Assembly: GCA_965224465.1 (NCBI GenBank)
Contig: OZ245049.1
Location: 4,440,001 to 4,472,000, forward strand
From: Flavobacteriaceae bacterium
GTDB taxonomy: Bacteria; Bacteroidota; Bacteroidia; Flavobacteriales; Flavobacteriaceae
Length of the DNA: 32,000 bases
Direction of reading: 5' to 3'
Below the pieces are notes generated by a model that saw nothing but the letters and a program-made list of their open reading frames with translations, did not search any database and was not told where the DNA came from. Positions within the stretch are counted from its first letter, which is position 1. Each line of letters opens with the position of its first letter. This document shows, piece after piece, positions 14,966 to 32,000 of this stretch. The position numbers and the translations under genes are program-made.

Positions 14966-16774
14966 ATGGCATTACAAAGCATCACTTCTATTTGGATAGG
15001 ATCAACAGAGATATCCTATTTTAAATCATTAGAATTACATCAAAATATAAAAGACCATCACCATCTAAAATTAGTTTGTCGCATGGATGTTTTAGAGGGT
15101 TTTGAAGAAGAACAAGCAAAGAGCAGCAAGGATTTTTTAGGGCAGGTTATCGGCTTAGAAATAAGCCCCTCTATAGGATTTGAAGGCGCCAAAGAACTCC
15201 TTTTTAAAGGGGTTGTAACGGGCGTGCAAAGCATAAAGGGCTTTGAGGCAGGTGATGGCGATGAAGTGATTATTAGCGCAAAGAGTCCTACTATTTTAGC
15301 TAGCGATGGCGCACATTTTACTTCGTACAACGATGTTTCTTTGTCGGGTATTATACACGATAATTTTCAGCTTTACGACACTTCAAAGCTATCTGTTTTG
15401 GTACGCTTACAAAACGATCCTACCATACATTATTCGGTACAGCACAACGAAAGTTCTTTTGCCTATGCAAGTAGGTTAGCGGCTATGCATGGAGAATGGA
15501 TGTACTACGATGGGATCCAATTGATCTTTGGAAAACCAGATCAAACAGAAGTTGCATTAACCTACGGATTTGATTTAAAAGAATACGAGTTAAAGCTAGA
15601 GCCACAATCTAGTAATTACACCTATTTTGCAAACGATTATTTAACAGACCAGGTATATGAGCAATCGGCAGCTAATGTAAATACAGGACTGCGAGGATAT
15701 GGCGATTTTGTATCAGGTAAATCCGCACATCTATTCCATAAGGAAACTAAAATTTGGCATAATTTACACAACAGTCCACAAACGCAACAACGCTTAGACA
15801 GGGCAACAGAAGTACAAATAAAAGCGATTGCTTTACAACAAGTAATTGTCCGTGTCACAAGCGACAATACAGGGGTAAAACTGGGAGGTATTGTAACGAT
15901 AGAAGGCAATAAATACAGGGTTGTAAAAATTACACATACCAATACAGAAACAGGCGAATACCTCAATAAATTTGAAGCCATTACCACAGATATAAATACA
16001 TATCCGTATACAGATATAAACGCATTTCCAAAAAGTGAAAGTCAAACGGCTGTAGTAAAATACAACGATGATCCCGATGGTTTAGGGCGTGTAAAAGTAC
16101 AGTTTGTTTGGCAAAAAATCACAGGAGAAATAAGTCCGTGGATACGAATGGTACAGCCACATGGGGGAGCAGATAAGGGCTTTTATTTTATTCCCGAAAT
16201 AAACGAAGAAGTATTGGTAGGTTTTGAAGGTGGGAATGCAGAGTATCCCTATGTCCTAGGAAGCCTCTACAATGGAAGTCAAGGTGCAGGTGCTTTTCAA
16301 TCAAAAAATAATGATATCAAAGCGATTAAAACTCGCGGAGGTCACCTAATAGAATTCAAAGACACCAATGGGGAAGAAACGATAACTATTTTAGATAAGA
16401 GTGGTAATAAAATAGTATTCGATGTTGCAAGTTCTAGCATCAATATATCAGCCCCGTCAAACATAACCCTTAGTGCAGATACGATACAGATTAAAGCAAA
16501 AAATGAAATTAAAATGTTTTCAGCCGAAAGCAGTATCGCCATAGAAGCAAAACAGGATATAGGGATGCATAGTAAGGATTCAAAATTACAATTAAGTGCT
16601 AAAGAAGATGTAGATATTCGTAGTAAAAATGCCAATTTAAAAATTAAAGCAAAGAATACGACACAAATTGTAGGTAATAAAACGGTTGACGTATTGGCGG
16701 GTAATGAATTAAAAATGCACGGTAAAAGTAGCAGTAAATTAACAGGAGGAAAAGTATTTATAAATAAAGGCTAG
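14966..16774 (+). CDS. vgrG: Type VI secretion spike protein VgrG (TssI), short Bacteroidota-type
   Basis: 602 aa. A gp27-like N-terminus is followed by a gp5 OB-fold signature, GRVKVQFVWQ...SPWIRMVQPHGGADKGFYFIPEINEEVLVGFEGGNAEYPYVLGSLYNG. The C-terminus is repetitive and beta-helix-like. Confidence 0.9.
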   Translation: MALQSITSIWIGSTEISYFKSLELHQNIKDHHHLKLVCRMDVLEGFEEEQAKSSKDFLGQVIGLEISPSIGFEGAKELLFKGVVTGVQSIKGFEAGDGDEVIISAKSPTILASDGAHFTSYNDVSLSGIIHDNFQLYDTSKLSVLVRLQNDPTIHYSVQHNESSFAYASRLAAMHGEWMYYDGIQLIFGKPDQTEVALTYGFDLKEYELKLEPQSSNYTYFANDYLTDQVYEQSAANVNTGLRGYGDFVSGKSAHLFHKETKIWHNLHNSPQTQQRLDRATEVQIKAIALQQVIVRVTSDNTGVKLGGIVTIEGNKYRVVKITHTNTETGEYLNKFEAITTDINTYPYTDINAFPKSESQTAVVKYNDDPDGLGRVKVQFVWQKITGEISPWIRMVQPHGGADKGFYFIPEINEEVLVGFEGGNAEYPYVLGSLYNGSQGAGAFQSKNNDIKAIKTRGGHLIEFKDTNGEETITILDKSGNKIVFDVASSSINISAPSNITLSADTIQIKAKNEIKMFSAESSIAIEAKQDIGMHSKDSKLQLSAKEDVDIRSKNANLKIKAKNTTQIVGNKTVDVLAGNELKMHGKSSSKLTGGKVFINKG

Positions 16775-16781
16775 TATTCGT

Positions 16782-17633
16782 ATGAGAACTTTAGAACTCG
16801 AAACATATATTATAGATAAAAAAGTGTACAAATATGTATCTAAGTCTATAGTAGCAACAGAAAAAATGATGATGAAAAACTCATCAGAAGCTATTGTGAA
16901 AAAAAAGTACATTAAGAAGAATTTTCATAATACAGGTGCTATTTTTAGAATTGACACCCTGTCTGAAACCCAAGGAAAAGAGAGTGCCACGGGTAAATTA
17001 AGTGCCGATTTAAATAGCTTAATGCATCATATAAGTGTAGGAACTACCGCAACAGGAGAACTGCAAACAATTTTCAACATGGATCAAGTGATCGATACAT
17101 GGGATGCTCTTAAAAAGCGATGGAAAAAAGAGGCCCCTAGGAAAAACAGAAAACAGGTACAAAAAACGATAGATGCAGTAGAAGAAAATTTAGAAAACGG
17201 TAGTTTTGTTAAAGACATCGCTAGCCAAGGCATGCTGCATTTTTTACTGAACGGTTTGTATACAAATTACGGCAAGGATAATTGTATCGTGATCGCAAGA
17301 GATTTGAATAAATTTTTAGTAACACAACCATTGCCTTTAAATATTACCTATAAAATTGTAGCGTATGATAGGCTAAGCAAAGCCATGATAATTGAAGGCG
17401 AAGGGGAAGTTGCAGAAGAACGCCTTAACAAAAAAGAATTAACCCATTTTATACGATCGTTAAAAGATCAAATAAATTTAAAAGTGGATCTTCAAGTTGT
17501 TTATAAAGAGCGTTTTGAATTTGATGGAAGCCATTGGTTAACAAGAGCAAGACAGAAAGTAAAAGTAACAATCCCGGGGTTTTACATGGCAGAAACGGAT
17601 CAAAAAATAGAAGAATTGAACGATGAGCAATAA
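16782..17633 (+). CDS. Hypothetical protein between vgrG and the PAAR-like effector (candidate adaptor/chaperone)
   Basis: 283-aa ORF that starts 8 nt after the vgrG stop and overlaps the effector start by 11 nt (ATGAGCAATAA). I recognise no family. Any function is inferred from position only. Confidence 0.5.
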   Translation: MRTLELETYIIDKKVYKYVSKSIVATEKMMMKNSSEAIVKKKYIKKNFHNTGAIFRIDTLSETQGKESATGKLSADLNSLMHHISVGTTATGELQTIFNMDQVIDTWDALKKRWKKEAPRKNRKQVQKTIDAVEENLENGSFVKDIASQGMLHFLLNGLYTNYGKDNCIVIARDLNKFLVTQPLPLNITYKIVAYDRLSKAMIIEGEGEVAEERLNKKELTHFIRSLKDQINLKVDLQVVYKERFEFDGSHWLTRARQKVKVTIPGFYMAETDQKIEELNDEQ

Positions 17634-18696
17634 AAAATACGTACCGCAAGGCGTGTATTTAGCTTGCGATAAAGGAACTGTACCAACCGAATTTAAAATA
17701 ACGAATAATAATAATGTTTTTTTGTTTGATGAGCCCGTTGCCAATACGGGAGATATGATCCCCAATGTTAATATACAACCCTTTGGAGCCTGTAGCGTAA
17801 AATATGGAAACCCTTGCGTACCTGTGCCAACTGTTTGGCAAGGTTTTGAAGATGGTATATTTATTGGTAACTTTAACCCATTATTAGAAGACTCCGTGAT
17901 GCAATGTGGTGTAGGCGGAAAAATAGAAATACATTACTCGCTAGAAGATGCCCAAGCAGCATGTGGCGATGATGGAATGAGTTTCTGGGAAATAGTAGCT
18001 GCCACGGTATTGGTAGTAGCAGCAGTCGCATTAATTGTGATTACAGGAGGAGCTGTTATAGCGGCAGTAACTGCTGTAAGTGCTGCGACAGGTGCATTGG
18101 CAACTACAATAGCTGTAGGTGTTGTGGCATTAGAAGGGTTTGGTTTGTATTGTGAAGTAAAAGCATTATACGACTATACCGAAGACGGAGACGAAGAAGC
18201 ATTGTTTAAAGGTGTAGCCTTAGGTTTTTTGTTTTTAGGAGCAGGGAAAGTTGTTGAGAAAGGGTTTAGGGCACTTAAAAACAGTAAAGCCATTGTCGAA
18301 GTAACAGAACAGGTTACTAAGAAAATAAGTAAAAGGCTACAGTTTTTAGGAAGAACACCTGGGAAATCCTCTAAAACAGGCAGAGAAGTTTTTGAAAGAA
18401 TGTTAAACGGAAAACCTCCTACTGCAAGAGTTAAAAGAATAGGAAAAAAAGAAATAAAAGAATTTTGGGATTATGATAATCAAAAATGGAGAAATATAAA
18501 AGAAGCAGATATGGGGCATATTGAGGATGCCGTTTCGTATTGGAATAACACAGGAAGATACCTAGGTGCAAAATCTAAAGAGGTACGTAAATGGATGTTG
18601 GACTCAGATAATTATGTTTATGAGTATTTTAGAACGAATAGATCAAAAGGCGCAATATTAGGAAAAACAACAACTTATTTACCTCCAATTAATTAA
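17623..18696 (+). CDS. T6SS polymorphic effector: DUF4280/PAAR-like domain + multi-TM segment + C-terminal GH-E-like HNH/EndoVII nuclease toxin (CT type A)
   Basis: The N-terminal ~105 aa fit the DUF4280 pattern (YVPQGVYLACDKG, PFGAC, NPCVPVPTVW, MQCGVGGKIEI). An Ala/Val/Gly-rich hydrophobic run follows (FWEIVAATVLVVAAVALIVITGGAVIAAVTAVSAATGALATTIAVGVVAL), then the junction helix ALFKGVALGFLFLGAGKVVEKG. The C-terminal ~145 aa carry DMGHIED...NYVYEYFRTNRSKG, as in the GH-E family. Confidence 0.8.
   Translation: MSNKKYVPQGVYLACDKGTVPTEFKITNNNNVFLFDEPVANTGDMIPNVNIQPFGACSVKYGNPCVPVPTVWQGFEDGIFIGNFNPLLEDSVMQCGVGGKIEIHYSLEDAQAACGDDGMSFWEIVAATVLVVAAVALIVITGGAVIAAVTAVSAATGALATTIAVGVVALEGFGLYCEVKALYDYTEDGDEEALFKGVALGFLFLGAGKVVEKGFRALKNSKAIVEVTEQVTKKISKRLQFLGRTPGKSSKTGREVFERMLNGKPPTARVKRIGKKEIKEFWDYDNQKWRNIKEADMGHIEDAVSYWNNTGRYLGAKSKEVRKWMLDSDNYVYEYFRTNRSKGAILGKTTTYLPPIN
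18154..18264 (+). repeat. R0: recombination-homology segment inside the expressed effector gene
   Basis: 18190..18264 (GACGAAGAAGCATTGTTTAAAGGTGTAGCCTTAGGTTTTTTGTTTTTAGGAGCAGGGAAAGTTGTTGAGAAAGG) recurs essentially unchanged in R1 to R8. Weaker in-frame homology extends back to about 18154. Confidence 0.85.
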
Positions 18697-18713: not shown

Positions 18714-19160
18714 ATGAAAGAATTCAGTAATGAAATAGAAAATAAAATCGATAATTTTTTAAGTGAATCTTCTGAATATTACGAGAAAGGAAATATTATA
18801 AAATCGGGTAATTACCTTGTAAAGGCATATAAGATAATACCTCAGCCTAGAGAGAAATATAATGAAAGCTATAACTATTGTTCATATGTTTTAGATTATA
18901 TTTTAGATGAAGAATATGAGGTTAATAATGCTTTAAAGTGGTTACAAGAACTAGAACTGATAGCAAATTTTCAAAAAACATGGGAAGGAAGCTATGAGTT
19001 TTATGCAGCAAAAACATATTTTGTAATAGGACAATTTGAGAAGGCAATAGAATATTTTGATAAGTGTATTGAAATAGGAAAAGGGATGAGATATTTTGAA
19101 GATGAAGATCCTAAATACAAAGATTTTTATCTAAATCCTGAAAAATACACAAATGAATGA
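18714..19160 (+). CDS. Variable helical-repeat protein, candidate immunity/accessory (allele 1 of 3)
   Basis: 148 aa. Homologous but strongly diverged from 27401..27853 and 30855..31295, except for the shared C-terminus RYFE.E..KYKDFYLNPEKYTNE. Its stop overlaps the next start (ATGAATGA). Confidence 0.6.
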   Translation: MKEFSNEIENKIDNFLSESSEYYEKGNIIKSGNYLVKAYKIIPQPREKYNESYNYCSYVLDYILDEEYEVNNALKWLQELELIANFQKTWEGSYEFYAAKTYFVIGQFEKAIEYFDKCIEIGKGMRYFEDEDPKYKDFYLNPEKYTNE

Positions 19161-19611
19161 ATTAAATAACGGTCTTTATTTAACAGTAGAAGAACTTAAC
19201 GAAGAAGGCAATGACTTATTCGAAAAAGAGCAATTTTTAGATGCCTTAAAGAAATATGAACAAGCATTAAATTTACTTCCTATTCCAAAAACAAACTGGG
19301 AAGCAAGCACATGGCTTTATACGAGCATAGCAGATGTGTATTTTTCAATTAATGATTTAGAAATAGCCAAAAACAATTATTACAATGCTCTTAATTGCCC
19401 AGAAGGTATGGGCAACGCATATATTCATTTTAGTTTAGGTCAAGTTTTATTTCTACTAGGAGAGATTGATAAGTCTAGACAATCATTATTGCGTAGCTAT
19501 ATGTTAGAAGGGGAGGATATATTTAAAGATGAAGACCCAAAATTTAGAAAAAGTATTGAAAATTATTTAAAACCTCCGCCAAAAAAATCACGTTTTTTAT
19601 TAGATGATTAA
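19153..19611 (+). CDS. TPR-like protein, candidate immunity for CT type A; carries the KKSRFLLDD tail
   Basis: 152 aa with TPR-like helices (EEGNDLFEKEQFLDALKKYEQALNLLP; ADVYFSINDLEIAKNNYYNAL). Nearly identical copies lie at 27846..28304 and 31288..31746. Confidence 0.6.
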   Translation: MNELNNGLYLTVEELNEEGNDLFEKEQFLDALKKYEQALNLLPIPKTNWEASTWLYTSIADVYFSINDLEIAKNNYYNALNCPEGMGNAYIHFSLGQVLFLLGEIDKSRQSLLRSYMLEGEDIFKDEDPKFRKSIENYLKPPPKKSRFLLDD

Positions 19612-19750
19612 TTAAGGTAGTATAGTATTTTTGAAATACAGAAGTAAATACCCTTTATGATTATAGCCAAGATAGTGACGAAGAAGCATTGTTTAAAGGT
19701 GTAGCCTTAGGTTTTTTGTTTTTAGGAGCAGGGAAAGTTGTTGAGAAAGG
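19582..19750 (+). repeat. R1 inter-cassette direct repeat (~170 bp)
   Basis: Spans the last 10 codons of the upstream ORF (KKSRFLLDD*), the conserved spacer TTAATTAAGGTAGTATAGTATTTTTGAAATACAGAAGTAAATACCCTTTATGATTATAGCCAAGATAGT, and the 74-nt core shared with R0. Confidence 0.9.
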
Positions 19751-20243
19751 ACTTAAATCATTAAAATTTACAGATCAAGTTCTTGATGTTGCTAATGCGA
19801 CAAACAAACAAAAAGGTAATTTTGGAGAGATAAAAGCAGCTGCTAACCTGTCAAAAAATAAGAAGTTAAAAAGTGCAGGGTATGACCTGACAAGAATTGG
19901 TGATAAAGCCCCAACAGGATTTAATAATACCATTAAAAAAGGAATTGACGGTTTGTACGAAAACGCAACTCCACCACCTCAATTTGTTATCGATGAGGCA
20001 AAATATGGGACATCTAAGTTAAGTAAAACAGTTGATGGGAATAAACAAATGTCTGATGGATGGATAGAAGCTAATGATTATAAAAGGTTAACTGATCAAG
20101 TAGATGAAGATAAGGCTAGAGAGATCATTAGAGCGATGGAAAACGGAGAAGTAGAAAAAATATTATCTAACATAGATGAATCAGGAAATGTAGTTACAAA
20201 AAGTTTAGATGAATTAGGTAAAATAATAGGTGATTGGCCGTAA
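19689..20243 (+). CDS. Orphan toxin cassette O1: CT type B, PD-(D/E)xK restriction-endonuclease-fold nuclease-like (possibly PoNe-like)
   Basis: The frame is open from 19635 and the track start is a TTG. It begins with the junction helix FKGVALGFLFLGAGKVVEKG. Candidate catalytic pattern is GNFGE ... GIDGLYE ... VIDEAKYG (D...ExK). No N-terminal trafficking domain. Confidence 0.6.
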   Translation: MFKGVALGFLFLGAGKVVEKGLKSLKFTDQVLDVANATNKQKGNFGEIKAAANLSKNKKLKSAGYDLTRIGDKAPTGFNNTIKKGIDGLYENATPPPQFVIDEAKYGTSKLSKTVDGNKQMSDGWIEANDYKRLTDQVDEDKAREIIRAMENGEVEKILSNIDESGNVVTKSLDELGKIIGDWP

Positions 20244-20257
20244 AATTAAATATAATA

Positions 20258-21046
20258 ATGAATATTAGAGATAGATTAAACACTCAAGAAAGGTATCAAG
20301 AAATAATTGACAAAAAAACTCAATATATTAATGAAGATTTAATTAGAATTCAAGAAAGAAAAGAAGATGAAAAAAATAACATTCAACAATATCCAAAACC
20401 AAATATTAAGATTATTAAATCTATCTCAAACTCTTTAGTAGGGAAATATATAAATTTATTACAAGCAGAGTATTCTGTTGGTAGTGATTTTATTAAAATT
20501 AAAGAGATCTTTAGTCAGTTATTAGGTTCAATGGAAATTTCTTGGAATTTAAAATCAGTTGAAGATTTTAAGCATGGCTTTGATGAAGATCCGTATTACA
20601 CAACAGATAATTACCAGCAAATTTTGACCTTAGTAAGTTTGGGGGTTTTATTAGAGGTTGGTAATGCCGATTTTGATAAAATAATAAAAATACGTGATAA
20701 GGTAAAAAATTCAGATCAACTATTGGATTTTTTAATAAACTACCGTGTTAAAAGAGAATTTAAAAAGACTCTATTGAAATATAATAAATATACAAATATT
20801 CAGCAAATTTTAGATGTTCAAGATAAAACAGAAGTTATAAAATCTTTAAAAAAATATCTTTCAAAGCAATGGTTTAAAGATTTCGGAAAAATGGCAAATG
20901 CAGAAACTCATAAAAGCAAGTGGAATATTCATACAGGTTATTGGAGTTGGGAAGCAGGTGCAATAGCAAAAATCCTAAATTTAGATGATAGTAGTTTAAA
21001 AGATCAACAATACTACCCTTATGATATGGTACATTTTAAAGATTAA
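20258..21046 (+). CDS. Candidate immunity protein for CT type B (DUF1911/PoNi-like, tentative)
   Basis: I place the start at MNIRDRLNTQERYQE by homology with the start of 28961..29707; the track start at 20234 is a TTG. The C-terminal HKSKWNIHTGYWSWEAGAIAKILNLDDSSLKDQQYYPYDMV resembles the DUF1911 C-terminus as I recall it. Confidence 0.55.
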   Translation: MNIRDRLNTQERYQEIIDKKTQYINEDLIRIQERKEDEKNNIQQYPKPNIKIIKSISNSLVGKYINLLQAEYSVGSDFIKIKEIFSQLLGSMEISWNLKSVEDFKHGFDEDPYYTTDNYQQILTLVSLGVLLEVGNADFDKIIKIRDKVKNSDQLLDFLINYRVKREFKKTLLKYNKYTNIQQILDVQDKTEVIKSLKKYLSKQWFKDFGKMANAETHKSKWNIHTGYWSWEAGAIAKILNLDDSSLKDQQYYPYDMVHFKD

Positions 21047-21051
21047 TAATA

Positions 21052-21606
21052 ATGAGTTACATTTTAGAACTATCTTATTTATTAGTGAATAAGGATCAGA
21101 AAGATCAAAAAAACATTCAAAAAGAAGTAAAACTATCTGTCAATAAACCTAAAGAATACTTTTCCTTATTTGCAAGTGATTTAGCAGAAAGAGGTATTGA
21201 GAAGCCAATTGTTGAATTGCCTTGGTTTGCAATGATTAATGGATTGTATCGTGAGGGGTTTCTACAAGAATTAGATTGGAAATCTTATCCTGAAGATTTT
21301 GTAGAAGCGACTTTAGCGTTAATTAAATGTCATTCAAATTCTAAGCAAATAAAAAATCAACTCCTAGATTTAGAATTTTTAAATAATGATTTAGAAGTAG
21401 AAGAAGTTATTATAAAAATTAATAAGGTACTACAAGAATTCAATATTTTACTAATTATTATTGATATAGATAGTGATAGTTATCTTTTAAATAGGATCGA
21501 ATTTGATAAAAAAGAAAGAGTTTTAGAGTTAGTTTCCTTTTTAGGTTACGGTAAAATTAAGATATATCGTAACAAAAAGAAGAGCCGTTTTTTATTAGAC
21601 GAATAA
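21052..21606 (+). CDS. Hypothetical cassette-terminal protein (second putative immunity/accessory); KKSRFLLDE tail
   Basis: 184 aa. Differs at 2 residues from 29713..30267. No family recognised. Confidence 0.5.
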   Translation: MSYILELSYLLVNKDQKDQKNIQKEVKLSVNKPKEYFSLFASDLAERGIEKPIVELPWFAMINGLYREGFLQELDWKSYPEDFVEATLALIKCHSNSKQIKNQLLDLEFLNNDLEVEEVIIKINKVLQEFNILLIIIDIDSDSYLLNRIEFDKKERVLELVSFLGYGKIKIYRNKKKSRFLLDE

Positions 21607-21730
21607 CGGATTACAAGCAGTTCTTTGAAATACAGAAGTAAATACCCTTTATGATTTTAGTCAAGATAGTGACGAAGAAGCATTGTTTAAAGGTGTAGCC
21701 TTAGGTTTTTTGTTTTTAGGAGCAGGGAAG
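21574..21730 (+). repeat. R2 inter-cassette direct repeat (variant spacer)
   Basis: KKKSRFLLDE* tail, variant spacer CGGATTACAAGCAGTTCTTTGAAATACAGAAGTAAATACCCTTTATGATTTTAGTCAAGATAGT, then the core up to GGAGCAGGGAAG. Confidence 0.85.
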
Positions 21731-22162: not shown

Positions 22163-22165
22163 ATT

Positions 22166-24527: not shown

Positions 24528-24568
24528 AAGAAGGAGATAAGTTTATCGTAGAAATAATAGATTAAATT

Positions 24569-25290: not shown

Positions 25291-25740
25291 GTAAGTGGTA
25301 AAATTATAAAATCTTTTACCAAAAGAGGAGATGAGATTATAGAAGCTAGTGCAAAAGGAATTGATGATGTAGTAGAACCTCTAGGTACATGTAGAGATGC
25401 TCAAGGGAAATTAAGAAATAAAGACGGTACTTTTGCTAAGGACTCAAATACTGTTAAATTTAATAGAAATACTTCTGAAAGAAAAAAAGCATTATTAAGA
25501 GATGCAAAAGACCCCAATAGTGGGTTATCTGATAGAGCTAGAAAACAAATTTTAGATTCAAATGGGGAAAATGTACCAAAAGGTCATGAAGTTTCTCATG
25601 AAATTCCATTATACACAGAAAAAACTGTTACTGGTAAAAAAGCTTTAGATAGAGCAAGTAATATGAAAACTCAGCAGAAAAACGTACATAGAAAAAGACA
25701 CAAAAAATGTGGAGACCAGTTTCATGATTTCCCATTCTAA
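25231..25740 (+). CDS. Orphan toxin cassette O4: CT type D, HNH/EndoVII (beta-beta-alpha-Me)-like nuclease domain (tentative)
   Basis: Starts (TTG) with FKGVALGFLFLGAGKVVEK. The C-terminal KGHEVSHEIPL...NMKTQQKNVHRKRHKKCGDQFH has His/Asn spacing compatible with an HNH-type active site. The subfamily is not resolved by eye. Confidence 0.45.
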   Translation: MFKGVALGFLFLGAGKVVEKVSGKIIKSFTKRGDEIIEASAKGIDDVVEPLGTCRDAQGKLRNKDGTFAKDSNTVKFNRNTSERKKALLRDAKDPNSGLSDRARKQILDSNGENVPKGHEVSHEIPLYTEKTVTGKKALDRASNMKTQQKNVHRKRHKKCGDQFHDFPF

Positions 25741-25753
25741 TAAAAATTAAATT

Positions 25754-26452
25754 ATGAATTTACAAAGTATTAAAGAAATGTATTTAAAAGTAATAAAATC
25801 GGATGATTTATCTTTTAAATTAGACTTCATTGATGAATTGATAAAAAACAATAATAATGAAATAATGAACTATCATTATGACTTATTAAAAGAGAAATCT
25901 GATAAGAAATTTTTTCAATATATTAGAAGTTCCTTTAAAAAAAGAGGAAGCGAAGCGGAATTATTTTTATTAAAAAAAATTCAAAAAGAAAAAGATTTGG
26001 ATTTAAAAGGTGAAGTTCTTCAAATTTTAGGAGGAATGAAATGTGAAGAGATAACACCAATAGCAATAGAACTTCTTTCCGAACCAGTTTTTAGTCTTCA
26101 ATACAAAGCCATAATTGTTTTAGGTTGGCTTGGTAAAAAAGAAGAAGTATTGATTCTTGATAAGGTAATGAATTCTAATAAAAATCAAGATTTGAGAGGA
26201 TACGCAGCTTCAGCTATGAGGCAAATATGGTATAACAATTTAAGATTAAACAAAAGTATTCTTAAATGTTATTATAATGCACTATTAGGTGATAATTCAT
26301 ATGTATTAGATAGCACAATCATAACTTGTACGCAAGATATTCTTAAAAAAAAATTTGGTATTAAGGAGTCTAATCATGGAGATATATCAGGAGATATCTC
26401 CATAGCAAAACCCAAAGCAATAATGGCACTTGAAAAATTTCTAAAAATATAA
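25754..26452 (+). CDS. HEAT/ARM-like repeat protein, candidate immunity for CT type D
   Basis: 232 aa with HEAT-like helical repeats (LQILGGMKCEEITPIAIELLSEP..LQYKAIIVLGWLGKKEEVLILDKVMNS..DLRGYAASAMRQI). Confidence 0.5.
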   Translation: MNLQSIKEMYLKVIKSDDLSFKLDFIDELIKNNNNEIMNYHYDLLKEKSDKKFFQYIRSSFKKRGSEAELFLLKKIQKEKDLDLKGEVLQILGGMKCEEITPIAIELLSEPVFSLQYKAIIVLGWLGKKEEVLILDKVMNSNKNQDLRGYAASAMRQIWYNNLRLNKSILKCYYNALLGDNSYVLDSTIITCTQDILKKKFGIKESNHGDISGDISIAKPKAIMALEKFLKI

Positions 26453-26454
26453 AT

Positions 26455-26829
26455 ATGATTGTTTTTTTATATGACTCAGAATTGGAGTATGAATTATTAG
26501 ATGAAGAATTACACCTAAATGAAGCCTTAACCGAGTTTTATGAATTATCTGAAATAGAAGGTTCATTTTTTGGTGTTAAAACCCTAGGTGAAGTAATACA
26601 ATTTTCTTGGGAAGATGTAGATAAATGGCTTATAGACTTACCTAATCCACCATCTTTTTTGAATTTCCAACGATATGCTAACTATGATGAATGTGTCGAG
26701 ACTATTAAAATAGTTTTTAATGGAGTTTCTCCAAAAGAAGTTAAGAATTTAACAAAAGTTAATATTAAGTCAGAAACTCTCGATGGTGTCCTTAAGAAAA
26801 AAAAATCACGTTTTTTATTAGATGATTAA
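26455..26829 (+). CDS. Hypothetical acidic cassette-terminal protein; KKSRFLLDD tail
   Basis: 124 aa, starting 2 nt after the upstream stop. No family recognised. Confidence 0.5.
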   Translation: MIVFLYDSELEYELLDEELHLNEALTEFYELSEIEGSFFGVKTLGEVIQFSWEDVDKWLIDLPNPPSFLNFQRYANYDECVETIKIVFNGVSPKEVKNLTKVNIKSETLDGVLKKKKSRFLLDD

Positions 26830-26969
26830 TTAAGGTAGTATAGTATTTTTGAAATACAGAAGTAAATACCCTTTATGATTATAGCCAAGATAGTGACGAA
26901 GAAGCATTGTTTAAAGGTGTAGCCTTAGGTTTTTTGTTTTTAGGAGCAGGGAAAGTTGTTGAGAAAGGG
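26800..26969 (+). repeat. R5 inter-cassette direct repeat
   Basis: Same tail, spacer and core as R1. Confidence 0.9.
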
Positions 26970-27401
26970 TTTAGGGCACTTAAAAACAGTAAAGCCATTG
27001 TCGAAGTAACAGAACAGGTTACTAAGAAAATAAGTAAAAGGCTACAGTTTTTAGGAAGAACACCTGGGAAATCCTCTAAAACAGGCAGAGAAGTTTTTGA
27101 AAGAATGTTAAACGGAAAACCTCCTACTGCAAGAGTTAAAAGAATAGGAAAAAAAGAAATAAAAGAATTTTGGGATTATGATAATCAAAAATGGAGAAAT
27201 ATAAAAGAAGCAGATATGGGGCATATTGAGGATGCCGTTTCGTATTGGAATAACACAGGAAGATACCTAGGTGCAAAATCTAAAGAGGTACGTAAATGGA
27301 TGTTGGATTCAGATAATTATGTTTATGAGTATTTTAGAACGAATAGATCAAAAGGCGCAATATTAGGAAAAACAACAACTTATTTACCTCCAATTAATTA
27401 A
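26907..27401 (+). CDS. Orphan toxin cassette O5: CT type A (GH-E-like), silent near-exact copy of the expressed toxin tip
   Basis: The protein is identical to residues ~194-357 of 17623..18696. By direct comparison of 18190..18696 with 26895..27401 I see one nucleotide difference, the synonymous GAC/GAT at 18601 versus 27306. Confidence 0.7.
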   Translation: MFKGVALGFLFLGAGKVVEKGFRALKNSKAIVEVTEQVTKKISKRLQFLGRTPGKSSKTGREVFERMLNGKPPTARVKRIGKKEIKEFWDYDNQKWRNIKEADMGHIEDAVSYWNNTGRYLGAKSKEVRKWMLDSDNYVYEYFRTNRSKGAILGKTTTYLPPIN

Positions 27402-27853
27402 TGAAAATAAAAATGGCAATTTTAGAAAAACACACACAAGATAAAATAGATAAATTATCTAATGAATCATACAAGCGTTATGAAGTTGGGGATAAGGAAA
27501 CTTCATATAGACTAATGGAAGAAGCGTGGGGAATGTATCCAAATCCAAAAGAGAATTGGAATGAGAGTTATAATACTGCTAAATACGCTTTAGATGATCT
27601 TTTAAAAAATGGTGAAATTGAAAAAGCAATGATTTGGTATACAAGAATGGTTAAAATTCATGAGAACCTTGGACTTTGGATAGGTTCATTTGAATATTAT
27701 TCAGGAAAAATATTCTTTGAAAAGAAGGATTTTAAAAAGTCCTTAGAATACTTTAATAAAATGTTTGAAATTGCTGGTCATAGATATTTTGAAGATGAAA
27801 ATTCAAAATACAAAGATTTTTATCTAAATCCTGAAAAATACACAAATGAATGA
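27401..27853 (+). CDS. Variable helical-repeat protein, candidate immunity/accessory (allele 2 of 3)
   Basis: 150 aa. The start overlaps the toxin stop (TAATG), and an alternative start lies at 27413 (MAILEK, compare 30855). Shares only the C-terminal block with the other two alleles. Confidence 0.55.
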   Translation: MKIKMAILEKHTQDKIDKLSNESYKRYEVGDKETSYRLMEEAWGMYPNPKENWNESYNTAKYALDDLLKNGEIEKAMIWYTRMVKIHENLGLWIGSFEYYSGKIFFEKKDFKKSLEYFNKMFEIAGHRYFEDENSKYKDFYLNPEKYTNE

Positions 27854-28304
27854 ATTAAATAACGGTCTTTATTTAACAGTAGAAGAACTTAGCGAAGAAG
27901 GCAATGACTTATTCGAAAAAGAGCAATTTTTAGATGCCTTAAAGAAATATGAACAAGCATTAAATTTACTTCCTATTCCAAAAATAAACTGGGAAGCAAG
28001 CACATGGCTTTATACGAGCATAGCAGATGTGTATTTTTCAATTAATGATTTAGAAATAGCCAAAAACAATTATTACAATGCTCTTAATTGCCCAGAAGGT
28101 ATGGGCAACGCATATATTCATTTTAGTTTAGGTCAAGTTTTATTTCTACTAGGAGAGATTGATAAGTCTAGACAATCATTATTGCGTAGCTATATGTTAG
28201 AAGGGGAGGATATATTTAAAGATGAAGACCCAAAATTCAGAAAAAGTATTGAAAATTATTTAAAACCTCCGTCAAAAAAATCTCGTTTTTTATTAGATGA
28301 TTAA
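27846..28304 (+). CDS. TPR-like protein, candidate immunity for CT type A; KKSRFLLDD tail
   Basis: 152 aa, with 3 residue differences from 19153..19611. Confidence 0.6.
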   Translation: MNELNNGLYLTVEELSEEGNDLFEKEQFLDALKKYEQALNLLPIPKINWEASTWLYTSIADVYFSINDLEIAKNNYYNALNCPEGMGNAYIHFSLGQVLFLLGEIDKSRQSLLRSYMLEGEDIFKDEDPKFRKSIENYLKPPSKKSRFLLDD

Positions 28305-28364
28305 TTAAGGTAGTATAGTTCTTTGAAATACAGAAGTAAATACCCTTTATGATTATAGCCAAGA
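28275..28364 (+). repeat. R6 left part (tail + spacer); homology breaks at 28364
   Basis: Matches the other repeats up to ..GATTATAGCCAAGA, then diverges. Confidence 0.85.
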
Positions 28365-28375
28365 CGGCAACTAAT

Positions 28376-28418
28376 AAATACATTCCCAAGTGACGGTTTA
28401 TAAATAGAATTATTTTTT
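28376..28418. repeat. Small dispersed repeat, family X, replacing the 5' part of the cassette homology core
   Basis: AAATACATTCCCAAGTGACGGTTTATAAATAGAATTATTTT matches 11470..11510. The canonical core resumes at about 28413 (TTTTTTGTTTTTAGGAGCAGGGAAAGTTGTTGAGAAAGG) and runs to 28451. Confidence 0.65.
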
Positions 28419-28947
28419 GTTTTTAGGAGCAGGGAAAGTTGTTGAGAAAGGACTTAAATCATTAAAATTTACAGATGAAGTTCTAGATGTTGCTAATGCG
28501 ACAAACAAACAAAAAGGTAATTTTGGAGAGATAAAAGCAGCTGCTAACCTGTCAAAAAATAAGAAGTTAAAAAGTGCAGGGTATGACCTGACAAGAATTG
28601 GTGATAAAGCCCCGACAGGATTTAATAATACCATTAAAAAAGGAATTGACGGTTTGTACGAAAACGCAACTCCACCACCCAAGTTTGTAATAGATGAAGC
28701 TAAGTTTAATACCGCTCAACTTGGTAAAACCAAAGATGGCAAGCAGATGAGTGATGGATGGTTGTTAGGAGAAAAAACAGGAAATAATAGGCTAATAGAT
28801 CAAGTAGGTGATGTAAAAGCTGATGAAATAATGGAAGCACTAGAAAATGGAGAAGTGGAAAAAATTATAAGCCGTGTTGACGTAAATGGGAATGTAGTTA
28901 GTAAACAATTAAATAGTGCAGGTAATATTATAGGTAATTGGCCATAA
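28417..28947 (+). CDS. Orphan toxin cassette O6: CT type B' (PD-(D/E)xK-like variant) with a degraded 5' junction
   Basis: Starts at TTG inside the junction helix (FLGAGKVVEKG). It is near-identical to O1 through ..VIDEAK, after which the C-terminal half diverges. Confidence 0.55.
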   Translation: MFLGAGKVVEKGLKSLKFTDEVLDVANATNKQKGNFGEIKAAANLSKNKKLKSAGYDLTRIGDKAPTGFNNTIKKGIDGLYENATPPPKFVIDEAKFNTAQLGKTKDGKQMSDGWLLGEKTGNNRLIDQVGDVKADEIMEALENGEVEKIISRVDVNGNVVSKQLNSAGNIIGNWP

Positions 28948-28960
28948 CTAATATATAAAT

Positions 28961-29707
28961 ATGAAATTAAGAGATGTATTAAATACAGAAGAAGGATATC
29001 AAGAAATAATAGATAAAAAAGATCGATTTATTAATTCTAGGTTTGATAAAATAAAAAAACTAAAAAAAGATGAAATTGATGGGATTCAACAATATCCTAA
29101 GCCTAATTATGACATTATTATAAGTTCCAAAAAAAGCATTCTAACTTTTTATCGTGAAATACTTGAGACTAAATATTCAGTAGGAGAAGAATTGTCTGTA
29201 ATTAAACAGTATTATTTAGATGTTATTAACTTTATAAATGATTCTAAAACTCATTCAGGTTATGCAAATATTTTAAGATTAATTTCTATGGGGATTATGT
29301 TTGAAATAAATGAAGATGAGTTTAAGATACTAATTGAATTAGTAGAGAGGTATTTAAAGAAAACAAAAGATGAAGATTTTTTAATTGATTTTTTAATTAA
29401 TTTCTATAAACCGGATTGGATACAATCCAATACTTTTTTAATAAATATACCTTATAAAAACATTAATGGTATTATAGAATTATCAAAAAAGAGTAAGATA
29501 GAAGCATCAGTGAAATTAAATACATATATATCAAAATGTTGGTACAGAGGTATTATTGAAGTCGAAACTCATAAAAGCAAGTGGAATATTCATACAGGTT
29601 ATTGGAGTTGGGAAGCAGGTGCAATAGCAAAAATCCTAAATTTAGATGATAGTAGTTTAAAAGATCAACAATACTACCCTTATGATATGGTACATTTTAA
29701 AGATTAA
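28961..29707 (+). CDS. Candidate immunity protein for CT type B' (DUF1911/PoNi-like, tentative), variant
   Basis: 248 aa. The last ~47 aa are identical to those of 20258..21046, and the remainder is strongly diverged. Confidence 0.55.
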   Translation: MKLRDVLNTEEGYQEIIDKKDRFINSRFDKIKKLKKDEIDGIQQYPKPNYDIIISSKKSILTFYREILETKYSVGEELSVIKQYYLDVINFINDSKTHSGYANILRLISMGIMFEINEDEFKILIELVERYLKKTKDEDFLIDFLINFYKPDWIQSNTFLINIPYKNINGIIELSKKSKIEASVKLNTYISKCWYRGIIEVETHKSKWNIHTGYWSWEAGAIAKILNLDDSSLKDQQYYPYDMVHFKD

Positions 29708-29712
29708 TAATA

Positions 29713-30267
29713 ATGTGTTACATTTTAGAACTATCTTATTTATTAGTGAATAAGGATCAGAAAGATCAAATAAACATTCAAAAAGAAGTAAAACTATCTG
29801 TCAATAAACCTAAAGAATACTTTTCCTTATTTGCAAGTGATTTAGCAGAAAGAGGTATTGAGAAGCCAATTGTTGAATTGCCTTGGTTTGCAATGATTAA
29901 TGGATTGTATCGTGAGGGGTTTCTACAAGAATTAGATTGGAAATCTTATCCTGAAGATTTTGTAGAAGCGACTTTAGCGTTAATTAAATGTCATTCAAAT
30001 TCTAAGCAAATAAAAAATCAACTCCTAGATTTAGAATTTTTAAATAATGATTTAGAAGTAGAAGAAGTTATTATAAAAATTAATAAGGTACTACAAGAAT
30101 TCAATATTTTACTAATTATTATTGATATAGATAGTGATAGTTATCTTTTAAATAGGATCGAATTTGATAAAAAAGAAAGAGTTTTAGAGTTAGTTTCCTT
30201 TTTAGGTTACGGTAAAATTAAGATATATCGTAACAAAAAGAAGAGCCGTTTTTTATTAGACGAATAA
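29713..30267 (+). CDS. Hypothetical cassette-terminal protein; KKSRFLLDE tail
   Basis: 184 aa, with 2 residue differences from 21052..21606. Confidence 0.5.
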   Translation: MCYILELSYLLVNKDQKDQINIQKEVKLSVNKPKEYFSLFASDLAERGIEKPIVELPWFAMINGLYREGFLQELDWKSYPEDFVEATLALIKCHSNSKQIKNQLLDLEFLNNDLEVEEVIIKINKVLQEFNILLIIIDIDSDSYLLNRIEFDKKERVLELVSFLGYGKIKIYRNKKKSRFLLDE

Positions 30268-30405
30268 CGGATTACAAGCAGTTCTTTGAAATACAGAAGT
30301 AAATACCCTTTATGATTATAGCCAAGATAGTGACGAAGAAGCATTGTTTAAAGGTGTAGCCTTAGGTTTTTTGTTTTTAGGAGCTGGGAAAGTTGTTGAG
30401 AAAGG
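30235..30405 (+). repeat. R7 inter-cassette direct repeat (R2-type spacer)
   Basis: KKKSRFLLDE* tail, spacer CGGATTACAAGCAGTTCTTTGAAATACAG.., and the core with one substitution (GGAGCTGGG). Confidence 0.85.
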
Positions 30406-30838
30406 GTTTAGGGCACTTAAAAACAGTAAAGCCATTGTCGAAGTAACAGAACAGGTTACTAAGAAAATAAGTAAAAGGCTACAGTTTTTAGGAAGAACAC
30501 CTGGGAAATCCTCTAAAACAGGCAGAGAAGTTTTTGAAAGAATGTTAAACGGAAAACCTCCTACTGCAAGACTTGAGGACGATTTTGGAAATGTAACTAA
30601 AGAGTTTTGGGATTCTGATAATAAGGTATGGAGGGATGTTATGGAAGCAGATATGGGGCATATTGAGGATGCCGTTTCGTATTGGAATAACACAGGAAGA
30701 TACCTAGGGGCAAAATCTACAGAGGTACGTAAGTGGATGTTGGATTCAGATAATTATGTTTATGAGTATTTTAGAACGAATAGATCAAAAGGCGCAATAT
30801 TAGGAAAAACAACAACTTATTTACCTCCAATTAATTAA
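30344..30838 (+). CDS. Orphan toxin cassette O7: CT type A' (GH-E-like variant)
   Basis: 164 aa. Identical to type A except for a central patch (RLEDDFGNVTKEFWDSDNKVWRDVMEADMGH versus RVKRIGKKEIKEFWDYDNQKWRNIKEADMGH) and one later K/T change. Confidence 0.65.
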   Translation: MFKGVALGFLFLGAGKVVEKGFRALKNSKAIVEVTEQVTKKISKRLQFLGRTPGKSSKTGREVFERMLNGKPPTARLEDDFGNVTKEFWDSDNKVWRDVMEADMGHIEDAVSYWNNTGRYLGAKSTEVRKWMLDSDNYVYEYFRTNRSKGAILGKTTTYLPPIN

Positions 30839-30854
30839 TAAGAAAAAACAAAAA

Positions 30855-31295
30855 ATGGCAATATTAGAAGCAATTATTTATGATGAGATTATAGTAATAG
30901 GAAAAAAATCTGTAGAATCAATAAAAAAAGGAGATTTAAATAACTTCATTAAGTTTTCGGAATTAGCTTGGAATAAGTTTCCTGAGCCAAAAGAAAACTG
31001 GAATCAAACGTATAATTTTTGTAAAATGGTTTTTAAGCACTTGATAAATAGCAGTTTACTGTGTCAAGCTGAGGAGTGGCTAAACAGAATGGTTCTAAAT
31101 AACAACAAATTACACCTTTTTGATGTAGATATAGATTTCAATATTGGGAAATTGCATTTTGAAATGAAAGATTATACTAGAGCATTGGAAAAATGGAATT
31201 ATGTAGTAAAAGAAGCTGGTTATAGATATTTTGAAAGAGAAAATTCAAAATACAAAGATTTTTATCTAAATCCTGAAAAATACACAAATGAATGA
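30855..31295 (+). CDS. Variable helical-repeat protein, candidate immunity/accessory (allele 3 of 3)
   Basis: 146 aa. Shares YRYFERENSKYKDFYLNPEKYTNE with the other alleles, and the rest has diverged. Confidence 0.55.
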   Translation: MAILEAIIYDEIIVIGKKSVESIKKGDLNNFIKFSELAWNKFPEPKENWNQTYNFCKMVFKHLINSSLLCQAEEWLNRMVLNNNKLHLFDVDIDFNIGKLHFEMKDYTRALEKWNYVVKEAGYRYFERENSKYKDFYLNPEKYTNE

Positions 31296-31746
31296 ATTAA
31301 ATAACGGTCTTTATTTAACAGTAGAAGAACTTAGCGAAGAAGGCAATGACTTATTCGAAAAAGAGCAATTTTTAGATGCCTTAAAGAAATATGAACAAGC
31401 ATTAAATTTACTTCCTATTCCAAAAACAAACTGGGAAGCAAGCACATGGCTTTATACGAGCATAGCAGATGTGTATTTTTCAATTAATGATTTAGAAATA
31501 GCCAAAAACAATTATTACAATGCTCTTAATTGCCCAGAAGGTATGGGCAACGCATATATTCATTTTAGTTTAGGTCAAGTTTTATTTCTACTAGGAGAGA
31601 TTGATAAGTCCAGACAATCATTATTGCGTAGCTATATGTTAGAAGGGGAGGATATATTTAAAGATGAAGACCCAAAATTTAGAAAAAGTATTGAAAATTA
31701 TTTAAAACCTCCGCCAAAAAAATCACGTTTTTTATTAGATGATTAA
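31288..31746 (+). CDS. TPR-like protein, candidate immunity for CT type A; KKSRFLLDD tail
   Basis: 152 aa, with 1 residue difference from 19153..19611. Confidence 0.6.
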   Translation: MNELNNGLYLTVEELSEEGNDLFEKEQFLDALKKYEQALNLLPIPKTNWEASTWLYTSIADVYFSINDLEIAKNNYYNALNCPEGMGNAYIHFSLGQVLFLLGEIDKSRQSLLRSYMLEGEDIFKDEDPKFRKSIENYLKPPPKKSRFLLDD

Positions 31747-31885
31747 TTAAGGTAGTATAGTATTTTTGAAATACAGAAGTAAATACCCTTTATGATTATA
31801 GCCAAGATAGTGACGAAGAAGCATTGTTTAAAGGTGTAGCCTTAGGTTTTTTGTTTTTAGGAGCAGGGAAAGTTGTTGAGAAAGG
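31717..31885 (+). repeat. R8 inter-cassette direct repeat
   Basis: Same tail, spacer and core as R1. Confidence 0.9.
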
Positions 31886-32000
31886 ACTTAAATCATTAAA
31901 ATTTACAGATCAAGTTCTTGATGTTGCTAATGCGACAAACAAACAAAAAGGTAATTTTGGAGAGATAAAAGCAGCTGCTAACCTGTCAAAAAATAAGAAG
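31824..32000 (+). CDS. Orphan toxin cassette O8: CT type B, partial at the window end
   Basis: From the TTG at 31824 the sequence is identical to O1 (19689 onward) over the visible 177 nt. The frame is open to the window end, so the array continues beyond 32000. Confidence 0.6.
   Translation, partial: MFKGVALGFLFLGAGKVVEKGLKSLKFTDQVLDVANATNKQKGNFGEIKAAANLSKNKK

Follow-up and report, generated by a model that had tools for sequence, protein, structure and literature searches.

Orphan toxin-tip/immunity arrays of Rhs, CdiA-CT and MafB have reportedly been described by Poole et al. 2011, Koskiniemi et al. 2014 and Jamet et al. 2015. In the auxiliary clusters of Vibrio cholerae, immunity arrays are formed by sequential effector displacement (PMC5361080). 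The Bacteroides adaptors Ate3 and Afe5 (= BtapC) are 11-strand open barrels with a hydrophobic cavity and are needed for loading (PMC13402684). PrePAAR effectors such as Tse6, cited in PMC11883445, have transmembrane domains and Eag (DUF1795) chaperones.

We analyzed 32,000 nt of DNA from a marine flavobacterium (the whole stretch is hereafter the window). The array that it holds is an orphan toxin array in the style of Rhs and CdiA and is built on a small carrier that is new for such arrays (Table 1). As in Rhs, CdiA-CT and MafB, a full-length gene joins a conserved delivery region through a conserved pre-toxin junction to a variable tip, which is accompanied by its immunity gene, and the downstream copies retain only junction, tip and immunity gene. 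Tips appear to be exchanged by homologous recombination at the junction, and other strains carry the same tips at the expressed position. Unlike the Rhs cage, the CdiA filament and MafB, the carrier is a 215-aa scaffold of DUF4280 and hydrophobic helices on a Bacteroidota-type VgrG. The junction (YDYxQDxDEEALFKxVALGFLFLGAGK) is a hydrophobic helix, whereas Rhs/CdiA junctions are PxxxxDPxGL or VENN. The array further differs from these systems in its density (at least eight orphans in 13.5 kb), in a single truncation point shared by all orphans and in a conserved peptide tail in each cassette.

The original prediction, a VgrG-anchored polymorphic toxin with tip/immunity cassettes following the logic of Rhs/CdiA orphan arrays, is supported by profiles and by comparative data: the truncated copies have junction homology, and the same tips are found at the expressed position elsewhere. 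We consider it probable that the whole is an auxiliary Bacteroidota-type T6SS effector module with an orphan tip/immunity array whose tips are swapped by recombination. This is a known way of varying bacterial weapons; the locus is a clean and unusually dense example, on a carrier not previously described for such arrays.

Table 1. Features of the module and array (positions in the window)
Feature	Position	Strand	Content and evidence
vgrG	14966-16774	+	Spike protein, Bacteroidota T6SS type; Pfam Phage_base_V 2.7e-23, Phage_GPD, DUF2345
283-aa adaptor-like protein	16782-17633	+	Between vgrG and effector; fold evidence
Effector, 357 aa	17623-18696	+	DUF4280, hydrophobic helices, junction (18154-18267), GH-E-like nuclease tip (18268-18696)
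Cassette 0 partners	18714-19611	+	Variable 148-aa TPR 18714-19160; conserved 152-aa TPR 19153-19611; Pfam TPR families
Repeat 1 and cassette 1	19581-21606	+	PoNe-type tip 19635-20243 (stop-to-stop); PoNi 20234-21046; DUF6630 21052-21606
Repeat 2 and cassette 2	21575-22750	+	NucA/NucB tip 21629-22162 (1.1e-20); SUKH-1 22166-22750 (SMI1_KNR4 4.5e-10)
Repeat 3, split	22720-22791 and 24049-24164	+	One repeat interrupted by the IS3-family element
IS3-family element	22792-24048	+	orfA 22852-23136, orfB 23184-24017; Pfam HTH_Tnp_1, rve
Cassette 3	24049-25153	+	NucA/NucB tip variant to 24527 (Pfam 4.1e-15); SUKH-1 24569-25153
Repeat 4 and cassette 4	25123-26829	+	150-aa tip 25177-25740; HEAT-repeat protein 25754-26452 (HEAT_2 1.6e-7); 124-aa ORF 26455-26829
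Repeat 5 and cassette 5	26799-28304	+	GH-E tip 26853-27401; variable 150-aa TPR 27401-27853; conserved 152-aa TPR 27846-28304
Repeat 6 and cassette 6	28274-30267	+	PoNe tip variant 28408-28947; PoNi 28961-29707; DUF6630 29713-30267
Repeat 7 and cassette 7	30236-31746	+	GH-E tip variant 30290-30838; variable 146-aa ORF 30855-31295; 152-aa TPR 31288-31746
Repeat 8 and start of cassette 8	31716-32000	+	PoNe tip as in cassette 1; cut by window end

The vgrG module and its small effector

All three scaffold genes were found as predicted, and the architecture of the effector (DUF4280, hydrophobic stretch, tip) was confirmed. The closest solved relatives of the VgrG are the B. fragilis chains 8gra_I (4.8e-60) and 9jg8_G (3e-57), with proteobacterial VgrG far behind in the same search (about 1e-10). 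In the effector, DUF4280 occupies aa 9-104 (Pfam, 5.3e-19) and has four cysteines (Cys15/57/65/95); aa 1-103 match aa 1-106 of the PAAR-like effector chain 9jg8_B (1.5e-4). Hydropathy analysis placed a hydrophobic stretch of about 55 residues, forming two or three helices, at ~aa 119-177, and the junction (aa 178-215) consists of an acidic loop and a hydrophobic helix. The tip had been called GH-E-like. It matches PF14410 at an E-value of 4.9e-4, which is under the Pfam gathering score, and PF14410 is listed by precomputed Pfam for the homologues P0022 and P0025.

The 283-aa protein, first described as unknown, has no match in Pfam or NCBIfam, but its fold is that of a conserved adaptor-like protein. 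In marine Flavobacteriaceae it has homologues (48-75% identity) that are invariably encoded between vgrG and the gene of the DUF4280 effector. The AF2 model (pLDDT 83.6, pTM 0.83) has 11 strands plus helices. Foldseek ranks 9jg8_A, a chain of the VgrG cargo complex, first for this model (E 8.9e-8, probability 1.00, TM 0.57/0.69); the lipid-binding open barrels of lipovitellin and of the LolA/LolB-like type come next. The similarity to 9jg8_A is one of fold, with no match at the sequence or profile level and an identity of only about 11%. From the description in PMC13402684 we took 9jg8_A to be the adaptor chain, and the model comparison suggests that the 283-aa protein is most likely the adaptor of the module.

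The module resembles B. fragilis BtpeA-BtaeB-BtapC (PDB 9jg8) and Bte3/Ate3/Pte3 (PMC13402684) in its VgrG type and in the DUF4280-type cap at the effector N-terminus, and a non-PAAR accessory protein with the 9jg8_A fold is encoded alongside. Unlike in those modules, the effector is small and combines hydrophobic helices with an exchangeable nuclease tip, there is no evident second effector secreted alongside it, and the host is a marine flavobacterium. With prePAAR effectors such as Tse6 (cited in PMC11883445), the locus shares a single protein that unites a PAAR-type cap and transmembrane helices with a toxin acting in the cytoplasm; in both, a dedicated chaperone encoded upstream would shield the helices, and the helices would mediate passage across the inner membrane. 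We nevertheless rejected assignment to the prePAAR/Eag class: in vgrG, the 283-aa ORF and the effector, Pfam found only DUF4280 and neither a DUF1795 chaperone nor the canonical PAAR family, and the model of the putative chaperone has another fold, an open beta-barrel.

We propose that the VgrG would be capped by the DUF4280 (PAAR-like) domain of the small effector, which the 283-aa protein would most likely load as an adaptor or chaperone. Its open beta-barrel probably shields the hydrophobic helices of the effector, and these helices probably help to bring the C-terminal nuclease into the target cell cytoplasm. No T6SS core genes (sheath, baseplate, membrane complex) were found within the window, and the description of the locus as a satellite vgrG island holds for the window only. 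The 5.24-Mb contig to which the proteins of the window are assigned also has two more VgrG paralogues on record.

Anatomy of the repeats and cassettes

Eight repeat copies follow the expressed gene, as had been predicted, the third being split by an IS3-family element. The original repeat length of ~110 nt applies to the 3' part, which is homologous to effector codons 178-215. The full unit is 170-186 nt, and its 5' part includes the final ~30 nt of the ORF before it and a ~45-nt spacer, both absent from the expressed gene. The junction encoded by the repeats has the consensus EVKALYDYxxDxDEEALFKGVALGFLFLGAGKVVEKG. At the end of this match, identity with the expressed gene is exact over 59-131 nt in seven of the eight copies and over 39 nt in the sixth, which is internally degenerate, its junction swapped for about 50 nt carrying stops. 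Every cassette ends with the peptide tail KKSRFLLDD, conserved through synonymous codon switches; in cassette 0 it terminates the conserved 152-aa TPR protein.

The IS3-family element has TG..CA ends and a 3-bp target duplication (CCC), and its transposase is the only mobile-element protein in the window, where no tyrosine or serine recombinase was found. We rejected an integron-like or recombinase-associated immunity island because the window has no site-specific recombinase and the repeats are coding homology to the effector. No terminator-like sites were found in the repeats.

Near-identical segments of up to about 700 nt are present three times, which could point to an assembly artefact. 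We consider such duplication so unlikely as to be negligible, because the copies differ by private SNPs and enclose unique and highly divergent cores, and the proteins of the window are recorded on the 5.24-Mb contig. Also against an artefact, one repeat is split by an insertion sequence with a target duplication, and the same repeat/tip/immunity layout occurs on independent contigs of other genomes.

The tip of cassette 1 is of the PoNe (PD-(D/E)xK) type and matches the solved chain 9waq_B (4.8e-10) with the common motif GIDGxYxN..PPPxxVxExKY. It is followed by PoNi (PoNi_N 4.8e-19, PoNi_C 3.5e-29) and DUF6630 (1.1e-24) in Pfam; the PoNi of cassette 6 scores 2.9e-20 and 4.9e-25, and PoNi_N and PoNi_C (formerly DUF1910/1911) score 1e-19 to 1e-29 across the array. 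Profile matches also bore out the predicted NucA/NucB tips and the calls of SMI1_KNR4, HEAT and TPR partners (Table 1). Matching immunity families follow the toxins, PoNi after PoNe and SUKH-1 after NucA. The small partner ORFs are presumably the cognate immunity genes, and the tips are predicted to be toxic. For the two TPR partner genes of cassette 0, nucleotide identity between paralogous cassettes is about 50% in the first gene and 98-100% in the second.

The cassette 4 tip had been described as a second HNH-like type. It matches no Pfam model and no PDB sequence, and Foldseek returned nothing significant for its AF2 model (pLDDT 83.9; best E 0.12). The weak matches were the teneurin C-terminal domain, Cascade-HNH, Anabaena NucA, the autotaxin nuclease-like domain and Serratia nuclease. 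We found 69 representative homologues of this tip, and in the full-length ones the match lies at or near the C-terminal end; among 30 that we scanned, several carry Tox-PAAR-like, DUF4280, PT-TG, RHS, Hcp or PT-HINT. The conserved residues are E100, H103, N124, H133 and H137. The tip is probably HNH-like as predicted, although its likeness to beta-beta-alpha-Me nucleases is thematic only and has no profile or significant fold match behind it.

Among the seven complete orphans, five tips are fully intact, uninterrupted and in frame with the junction. The tip of cassette 6 is intact behind its degenerate junction, and that of cassette 3 is frameshifted near its end, at 24512, by a 1-nt deletion in an A-run (A7 versus A8 in a sister strain). 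Cassette 8 is cut by the window end, and the array runs on past the window, as expected from the original prediction.

Lacking a DUF4280 domain and a near in-frame ATG, the orphan tips are presumably silent; in cassette 1 there is no in-frame ATG upstream of codon 138. Because they have neither the DUF4280 domain nor a start codon, they could not be loaded on VgrG as they stand. Expression of the orphan tips alone, from internal TTG starts or promoters in the repeats, as stand-alone toxins or for another delivery route, seems highly improbable. An in-frame TTG is present at ALF|KGVALG in every copy, TAnnTTTG (the Bacteroidota -7 consensus) is found in four of the eight repeats, and the protein collection lists the 164-aa orphan protein (P0126) among its products. 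However, no in-frame ATG precedes codon 45-162, no -33 element lies at the proper spacing, and promoter-like sites are not enriched. A tip without DUF4280 also has no evident way onto VgrG, and the variable truncation points in relatives (aa 77-188) fit recombination relics rather than designed genes. In our main reading, the retained immunity genes would protect against kin firing those tips and are probably read through from the operon.

Exchange of tips at the junction

The vgrG/adaptor/effector triad is conserved in the related loci L001-L006 and L012-L014, where effector aa 1-215 are 70-84% identical to those of the window. Relatives with 66-84% identity over aa 1-215 have GH-E, NucA/NucB, PoNe, Ntox46, SsdA_C or unmodelled tips. 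Each of the four silent tip types is the expressed-position tip on the same scaffold in another marine Flavobacteriaceae genome: L001 expresses the three genes of cassette 4 (unmodelled tip, HEAT, 124-aa ORF), L002 has NucA with SUKH, and L006 and L014 have PoNe with PoNi and DUF6630. Conversely, L001 carries GH-E, the tip type of the expressed gene in the window, as an orphan. Across genomes, the three-gene units are conserved.

Two comparisons point to recombination at the junction. In the sister strain L007, the flanks are 99.8% identical to those of the window, yet the silent cassette 3 of the window stands at the expressed position, with the crossover inside the junction and 99.5% identity over tip and immunity gene; L007 is a metagenome contig that could be chimeric across repeats. 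Within the window, the expressed tip tract (18190-18696) is identical to cassette 5 at 506 of 507 nt, as conversion in either direction would produce. The breakpoints of this tract are sharp: 12 mismatches stand directly before it, and identity is only ~50% from the base that follows the toxin stop. Behind these identical GH-E tips, the first partner genes of cassettes 0 and 5 share only 44% identity. The two may neutralize one and the same toxin; otherwise cassette 0 would now rely on cassette 5 for its immunity gene. We propose that a different tip would reach the expression site when the expressed junction undergoes homologous recombination or gene conversion with that of an orphan, and predict that tips switch in real time.

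An array of this kind could also be a fossil record, left by serial displacement by horizontally acquired tip/immunity pairs and kept only for its immunity genes, the truncated tips being by-products without reuse. The displacement model described for V. cholerae effector clusters (PMC5361080) offers a precedent, in which retained immunity genes are likewise arrayed downstream of a T6SS effector. The frameshifted tip, the degenerate junction and the downstream partner genes, which are the most conserved part of each cassette, fit such a record. We regard this reading as unlikely, though less so than the other alternatives. Unlike the V. cholerae arrays, the units here keep a toxin tip that is intact and in frame, behind a junction that is competent for recombination, cassettes 3 and 6 being the exceptions, and even cassette 6 has an intact tip. 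The dN/dS between paralogous cassettes is 0.2-0.7, that is, below 1. The expressed tip is a near-verbatim copy of cassette 5, deep in the array, and its limits coincide exactly with the junction and the toxin stop, as reuse predicts; displacement would put the older copy immediately downstream. Finally, all orphans have one truncation point and one upstream spacer, which speaks for spread by repeat-to-repeat recombination.

The vgrG, adaptor-like and effector genes

The gene order proposed from the sequence alone, vgrG followed by a 283-aa ORF and a 357-aa effector, was recovered as claimed (see the table). The VgrG carries Phage_base_V, Phage_GPD and DUF2345 domains (Pfam) and aligns to chain G of 9jg8, the PDB entry of the Bacteroides fragilis VgrG cargo complex BtpeA-BtaeB-BtapC. 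The predicted DUF4280 domain of the effector is present (aa 9-104, Pfam 5.3e-19) and aligns to chain B of 9jg8; the predicted GH-E-like C-terminal tip matched its profile only below threshold. Hydropathy analysis placed an unbroken hydrophobic stretch at about aa 119-177 of the effector, plus a hydrophobic helix at aa 193-211.

The 283-aa ORF has no Pfam match. Homologues with 48-75% identity were found in Aquimarina, Zobellia, Maribacter, Gangjinia, Aggregatimonas and metagenome contigs, and tblastn also detected the ORF in an Aequorivita locus (L004). It lies between vgrG and the DUF4280 effector in all loci examined. Its AF2 model (pLDDT 83.6, pTM 0.83) comprises 11 strands plus helices, and a Foldseek search returned 9jg8 chain A (E 8.9e-8, TM 0.57/0.69), then lipovitellin and LolA/LolB-type open barrels. 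The Bacteroides adaptors Ate3 and Afe5 (= BtapC) are 11-strand open barrels with a hydrophobic cavity that are needed for effector loading, and orthologues have been reported in Flavobacterium (PMC13402684). Because of the fold match to chain A, the alignment of the effector and VgrG to chains B and G, and this published description, we read the ORF as a putative adaptor or chaperone of the triad module, chain A presumably being the adaptor in the complex. By analogy with Eag chaperones (PMC11883445), it would shield the hydrophobic helices of the effector. The adaptor fold of gut Bacteroides, solved only recently, may also serve membrane-helix effectors of marine Flavobacteriaceae. In the best-supported model, the effector would cap VgrG via DUF4280, the adaptor would hold its hydrophobic region, and the helices would help to bring the nuclease into the target cytoplasm.

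The genes 5' of vgrG in the window encode only glycosidases, TonB-dependent receptors and one Fur-family regulator. The ~1 kb immediately 5' of vgrG has no ORF longer than 42 aa, Rfam match or plus-strand Bacteroidota -7 motif, and may be a regulatory region or the boundary of island insertion. Further upstream, a 1008-aa ORF joins phosphotransferase (APH), M23 peptidase and class-III aminotransferase domains, an unusual fusion unrelated to the array. The same 5.24-Mb contig encodes two more VgrG proteins of 588 aa that cluster with the window VgrG at 90% identity, which brings the genome to at least three related vgrG loci.

Coordinates of features in the window and in related loci (L004, Aequorivita; L005, a related locus; L007, the sister strain; L008, Zobellia laminariae)
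Feature	Source	Coordinates	Details
vgrG	window	14966-16774	
283-aa ORF	window	16782-17633	
357-aa effector	window	17623-18696	
1008-aa fusion ORF	window	2132-5158	
ORF-poor region 5' of vgrG	window	13929-14965	
IS3-family element	window, inside third repeat	22792-24048	1257 bp; TG..CA ends, CCC duplication; orfA 94 aa, orfB 277 aa
Cassette-end tail	window	19582-19611, 21577-21606, 22721-22750, 25124-25153, 26800-26829, 28275-28304, 30238-30267, 31717-31746	
Cassette-end tail	L004	5813-5836, 8983-9021	
Cassette-end tail	L005	11593-11619, 12027-12065, 14480-14518	
IS1595-type element and DDE_1 transposase gene	L007	10567-11657, 15046-16479	
Tandem full-length effectors	L008	7319-17881	

Repeats, orphan tips and partner genes

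The eight downstream copies of the direct repeat stand as predicted, with a length of 170-186 nt rather than the ~110 nt first assigned. Each repeat takes in the last ~30 nt or so of the ORF ahead of it, a ~45-nt spacer and finally ~110 nt homologous to effector codons 178-215 (the junction). Matches to the expressed gene start at 18190 for all copies but the sixth and seventh. Seven copies are exactly identical to that gene over 59-131 nt; the sixth is so over 39 nt, its junction being swapped for ~50 nt containing stops. This degenerate junction is not an IS scar. The IS3-family element parts the cassette 3 tip from the 5' half of its repeat. We found no Rfam match anywhere in the window, no enrichment in sigma-70-type promoter scans, and a Bacteroidota -7 motif in four of the eight repeats, none with a -33 element. 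Nor do the repeats contain terminator-like sites, so that expression of the immunity genes by read-through is plausible from the sequence. The junction peptide occurs in only six contigs of the metagenome collection scanned; the family is therefore rare there, and the compact motif could be used to find further such arrays.

Each of the four tip families is a nuclease or resembles one. The orphan tips lack DUF4280 and a nearby in-frame ATG. GH-E-like tips occupy the expressed position (cassette 0) and cassettes 5 and 7. Cassettes 1, 6 and 8 carry PoNe-type tips, for which the PD-(D/E)xK call is borne out by the solved chain 9waq_B (4.8e-10, sharing GIDGxYxN..PPPxxVxExKY), there being no Pfam model; PoNi_N/PoNi_C follows every copy. 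The NucA/NucB assignment holds for cassettes 2 and 3 (Pfam 1.1e-20 and 4.1e-15). In cassette 3, the tract at 24505-24512 reads A7 against A8 in the sister strain, and the last ~13 residues are lost; this could reflect a pseudogene, a homopolymer sequencing error or a phase-variable tract.

The cassette 4 domain had been called a second HNH-like type. This 150-aa domain has no profile match. Among 69 representative homologues, it lies at or near the C-terminal end of the full-length proteins, and several of the 30 scanned have Tox-PAAR-like, DUF4280, PT-TG, RHS, Hcp or PT-HINT scaffolds, which marks it as a genuine polymorphic-toxin tip. No PDB structure is a significant neighbour of its confident AF2 model (pLDDT 83.9), and the weak matches are all beta-beta-alpha-Me nucleases, suggesting that the tip is likely HNH-like.

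The partner ORFs include the anticipated TPR, PoNi, SUKH-1 and HEAT-repeat families (Pfam), besides DUF6630 and a 124-aa protein of no known family. One 146-aa partner has only a marginal TPR match (E 0.069); it shares 35-44% identity with the variable TPR proteins in cassettes 0 and 5. Between paralogous cassettes, dN/dS is 0.2-0.7.

Proposed tip exchange in relatives and within the array

The same triad occurs in six GTDB-genome loci and several metagenome contigs, with effectors 70-84% identical over aa 1-215 (the scaffold). Four of these loci express tips that are presumably silent in the window: the cassette 4 tip, for which no model exists, with its HEAT and 124-aa partners (L001), NucA with SUKH (L002), and PoNe with PoNi and DUF6630 (L006 and L014). 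Conversely, GH-E and its two TPR genes are an orphan in L001. Relatives have one to three orphans per locus, truncated at points between aa 77 and 188. In two Zobellia loci (L008 and L009), the downstream copies are tandem full-length DUF4280 effectors, and relatives thus form a series that runs from full genes in tandem to minimal orphans. The Zobellia tips include SsdA_C, with Imm5, Imm30 and Tsi6-like partner genes, and a second adaptor homologue (26% identical) precedes another DUF4280 effector.

In the sister strain (L007), whose flanks are 99.8% identical, the expressed gene joins the scaffold to cassette 3 of the window (99.5% identity). The crossover falls inside the junction and cassette 1 comes next. 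L007 is a metagenome contig and is possibly chimeric across repeats. Its adaptor gene is broken by an IS1595-type element and, after cassette 1, a DDE_1 transposase gene takes the place of DUF6630; the island is an IS-insertion hot spot, and the L007 module may be inactive. Over 14383-18272 (vgrG, adaptor and effector N-terminal region), the window and L007 are 97.3-98.2% identical versus 99.8% for the preceding 7.5 kb; the island is evolving or recombining more rapidly than the DNA beside it.

A single mismatch in 507 nt separates 18190-18696 of the window from cassette 5 (26895-27401), and the 28 nt upstream of 18190 hold 12 mismatches. Identity drops to ~50% from the first base past the toxin stop and returns to 99-100% ~415 nt further on. 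At the sequence level, we read this pattern as the trace of gene conversion, with the junction and the tip end as the limits of the tract. All three cassette families are similarly mosaic: near-identical arms flank a divergent core made up of the tip end and the beginning of the first partner gene. The first partners of cassettes 0 and 5 (148 and 150 aa) share only 44% protein identity; either the one GH-E toxin is neutralised by both or cassette 0 relies on the cassette 5 immunity gene.

In the best-supported model, RecA-type recombination between junctions that are identical over 59-131 nt would exchange the tip. Tracts of this size are longer than E. coli needs at minimum for efficient homologous recombination. 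The main rival explanation treats the array as nothing more than a record of tips that were displaced and retained for immunity. The frameshift in the cassette 3 tip and the degeneracy of the sixth junction agree with this view; the tract common to the expressed tip and cassette 5 and the intact frames of the tips are at odds with it.

Comparison with known systems and a shared cassette-end tail

The junction-headed orphan cassettes bear out the proposed Rhs/CdiA logic, to which MafB can be added. The carrier, junction motif, adaptor and cassette-end tail all differ from those arrays, and it is well supported that the window holds a Rhs/CdiA/MafB-like principle on a different carrier. That principle was already established, which limits the novelty; what is added is its occurrence on a minimal Bacteroidota type VI carrier, a PAAR-like cap with membrane helices. 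The searchable literature yielded no account of orphan arrays carried by DUF4280 effectors. The module has neither DUF1795 nor a PAAR domain and so is not a prePAAR/Eag system, and with no recombinase present the array is not an integron-like island. TANFOR toxins of Bacteroidetes are a separate, T9SS-linked class (PMC7073777). With a carrier of just 215 aa, four nuclease tips and a dedicated adaptor adjoining, the locus offers a tractable system for how a hydrophobic scaffold delivers nucleases.

Every window cassette closes with the tail KKSRFLLD[DE], carried by four unrelated protein families, and the same tail closes three more unrelated families in Aequorivita and Gangjinia. The consensus [KR][KN]SRFL[LI][DG]D ends unrelated small cassette-end ORFs in three genera. 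Homologues of tailed window proteins in the relatives checked (L001, L002 and L006) have no tail, and a profile of nine 45-aa C-termini searched against 5.8 billion proteins returned only the already-known Gangjinia protein. Two other explanations of the tail were rejected: a remnant of the effector NPLLEDS segment (the match is just 8 nt) and a U UUU UUA frameshift site (a stop follows within three codons in either shifted frame). In nine variants, S-R-F-L is unchanged at the amino-acid level while the codons switch family (Ser AGC, TCA, TCT, AGT; Arg CGT, CGA, AGG), which points to selection on the peptide, not the DNA. We tentatively propose, as a possible if rather doubtful reading, that the tail is a portable, selected peptide module and not merely part of the DNA repeat. 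It might be a docking tag by which the final protein of a cassette is held to the conserved scaffold, the adaptor or the junction helix, or it might be a regulated degron; either, if true, would be a feature undescribed for any polymorphic toxin system.
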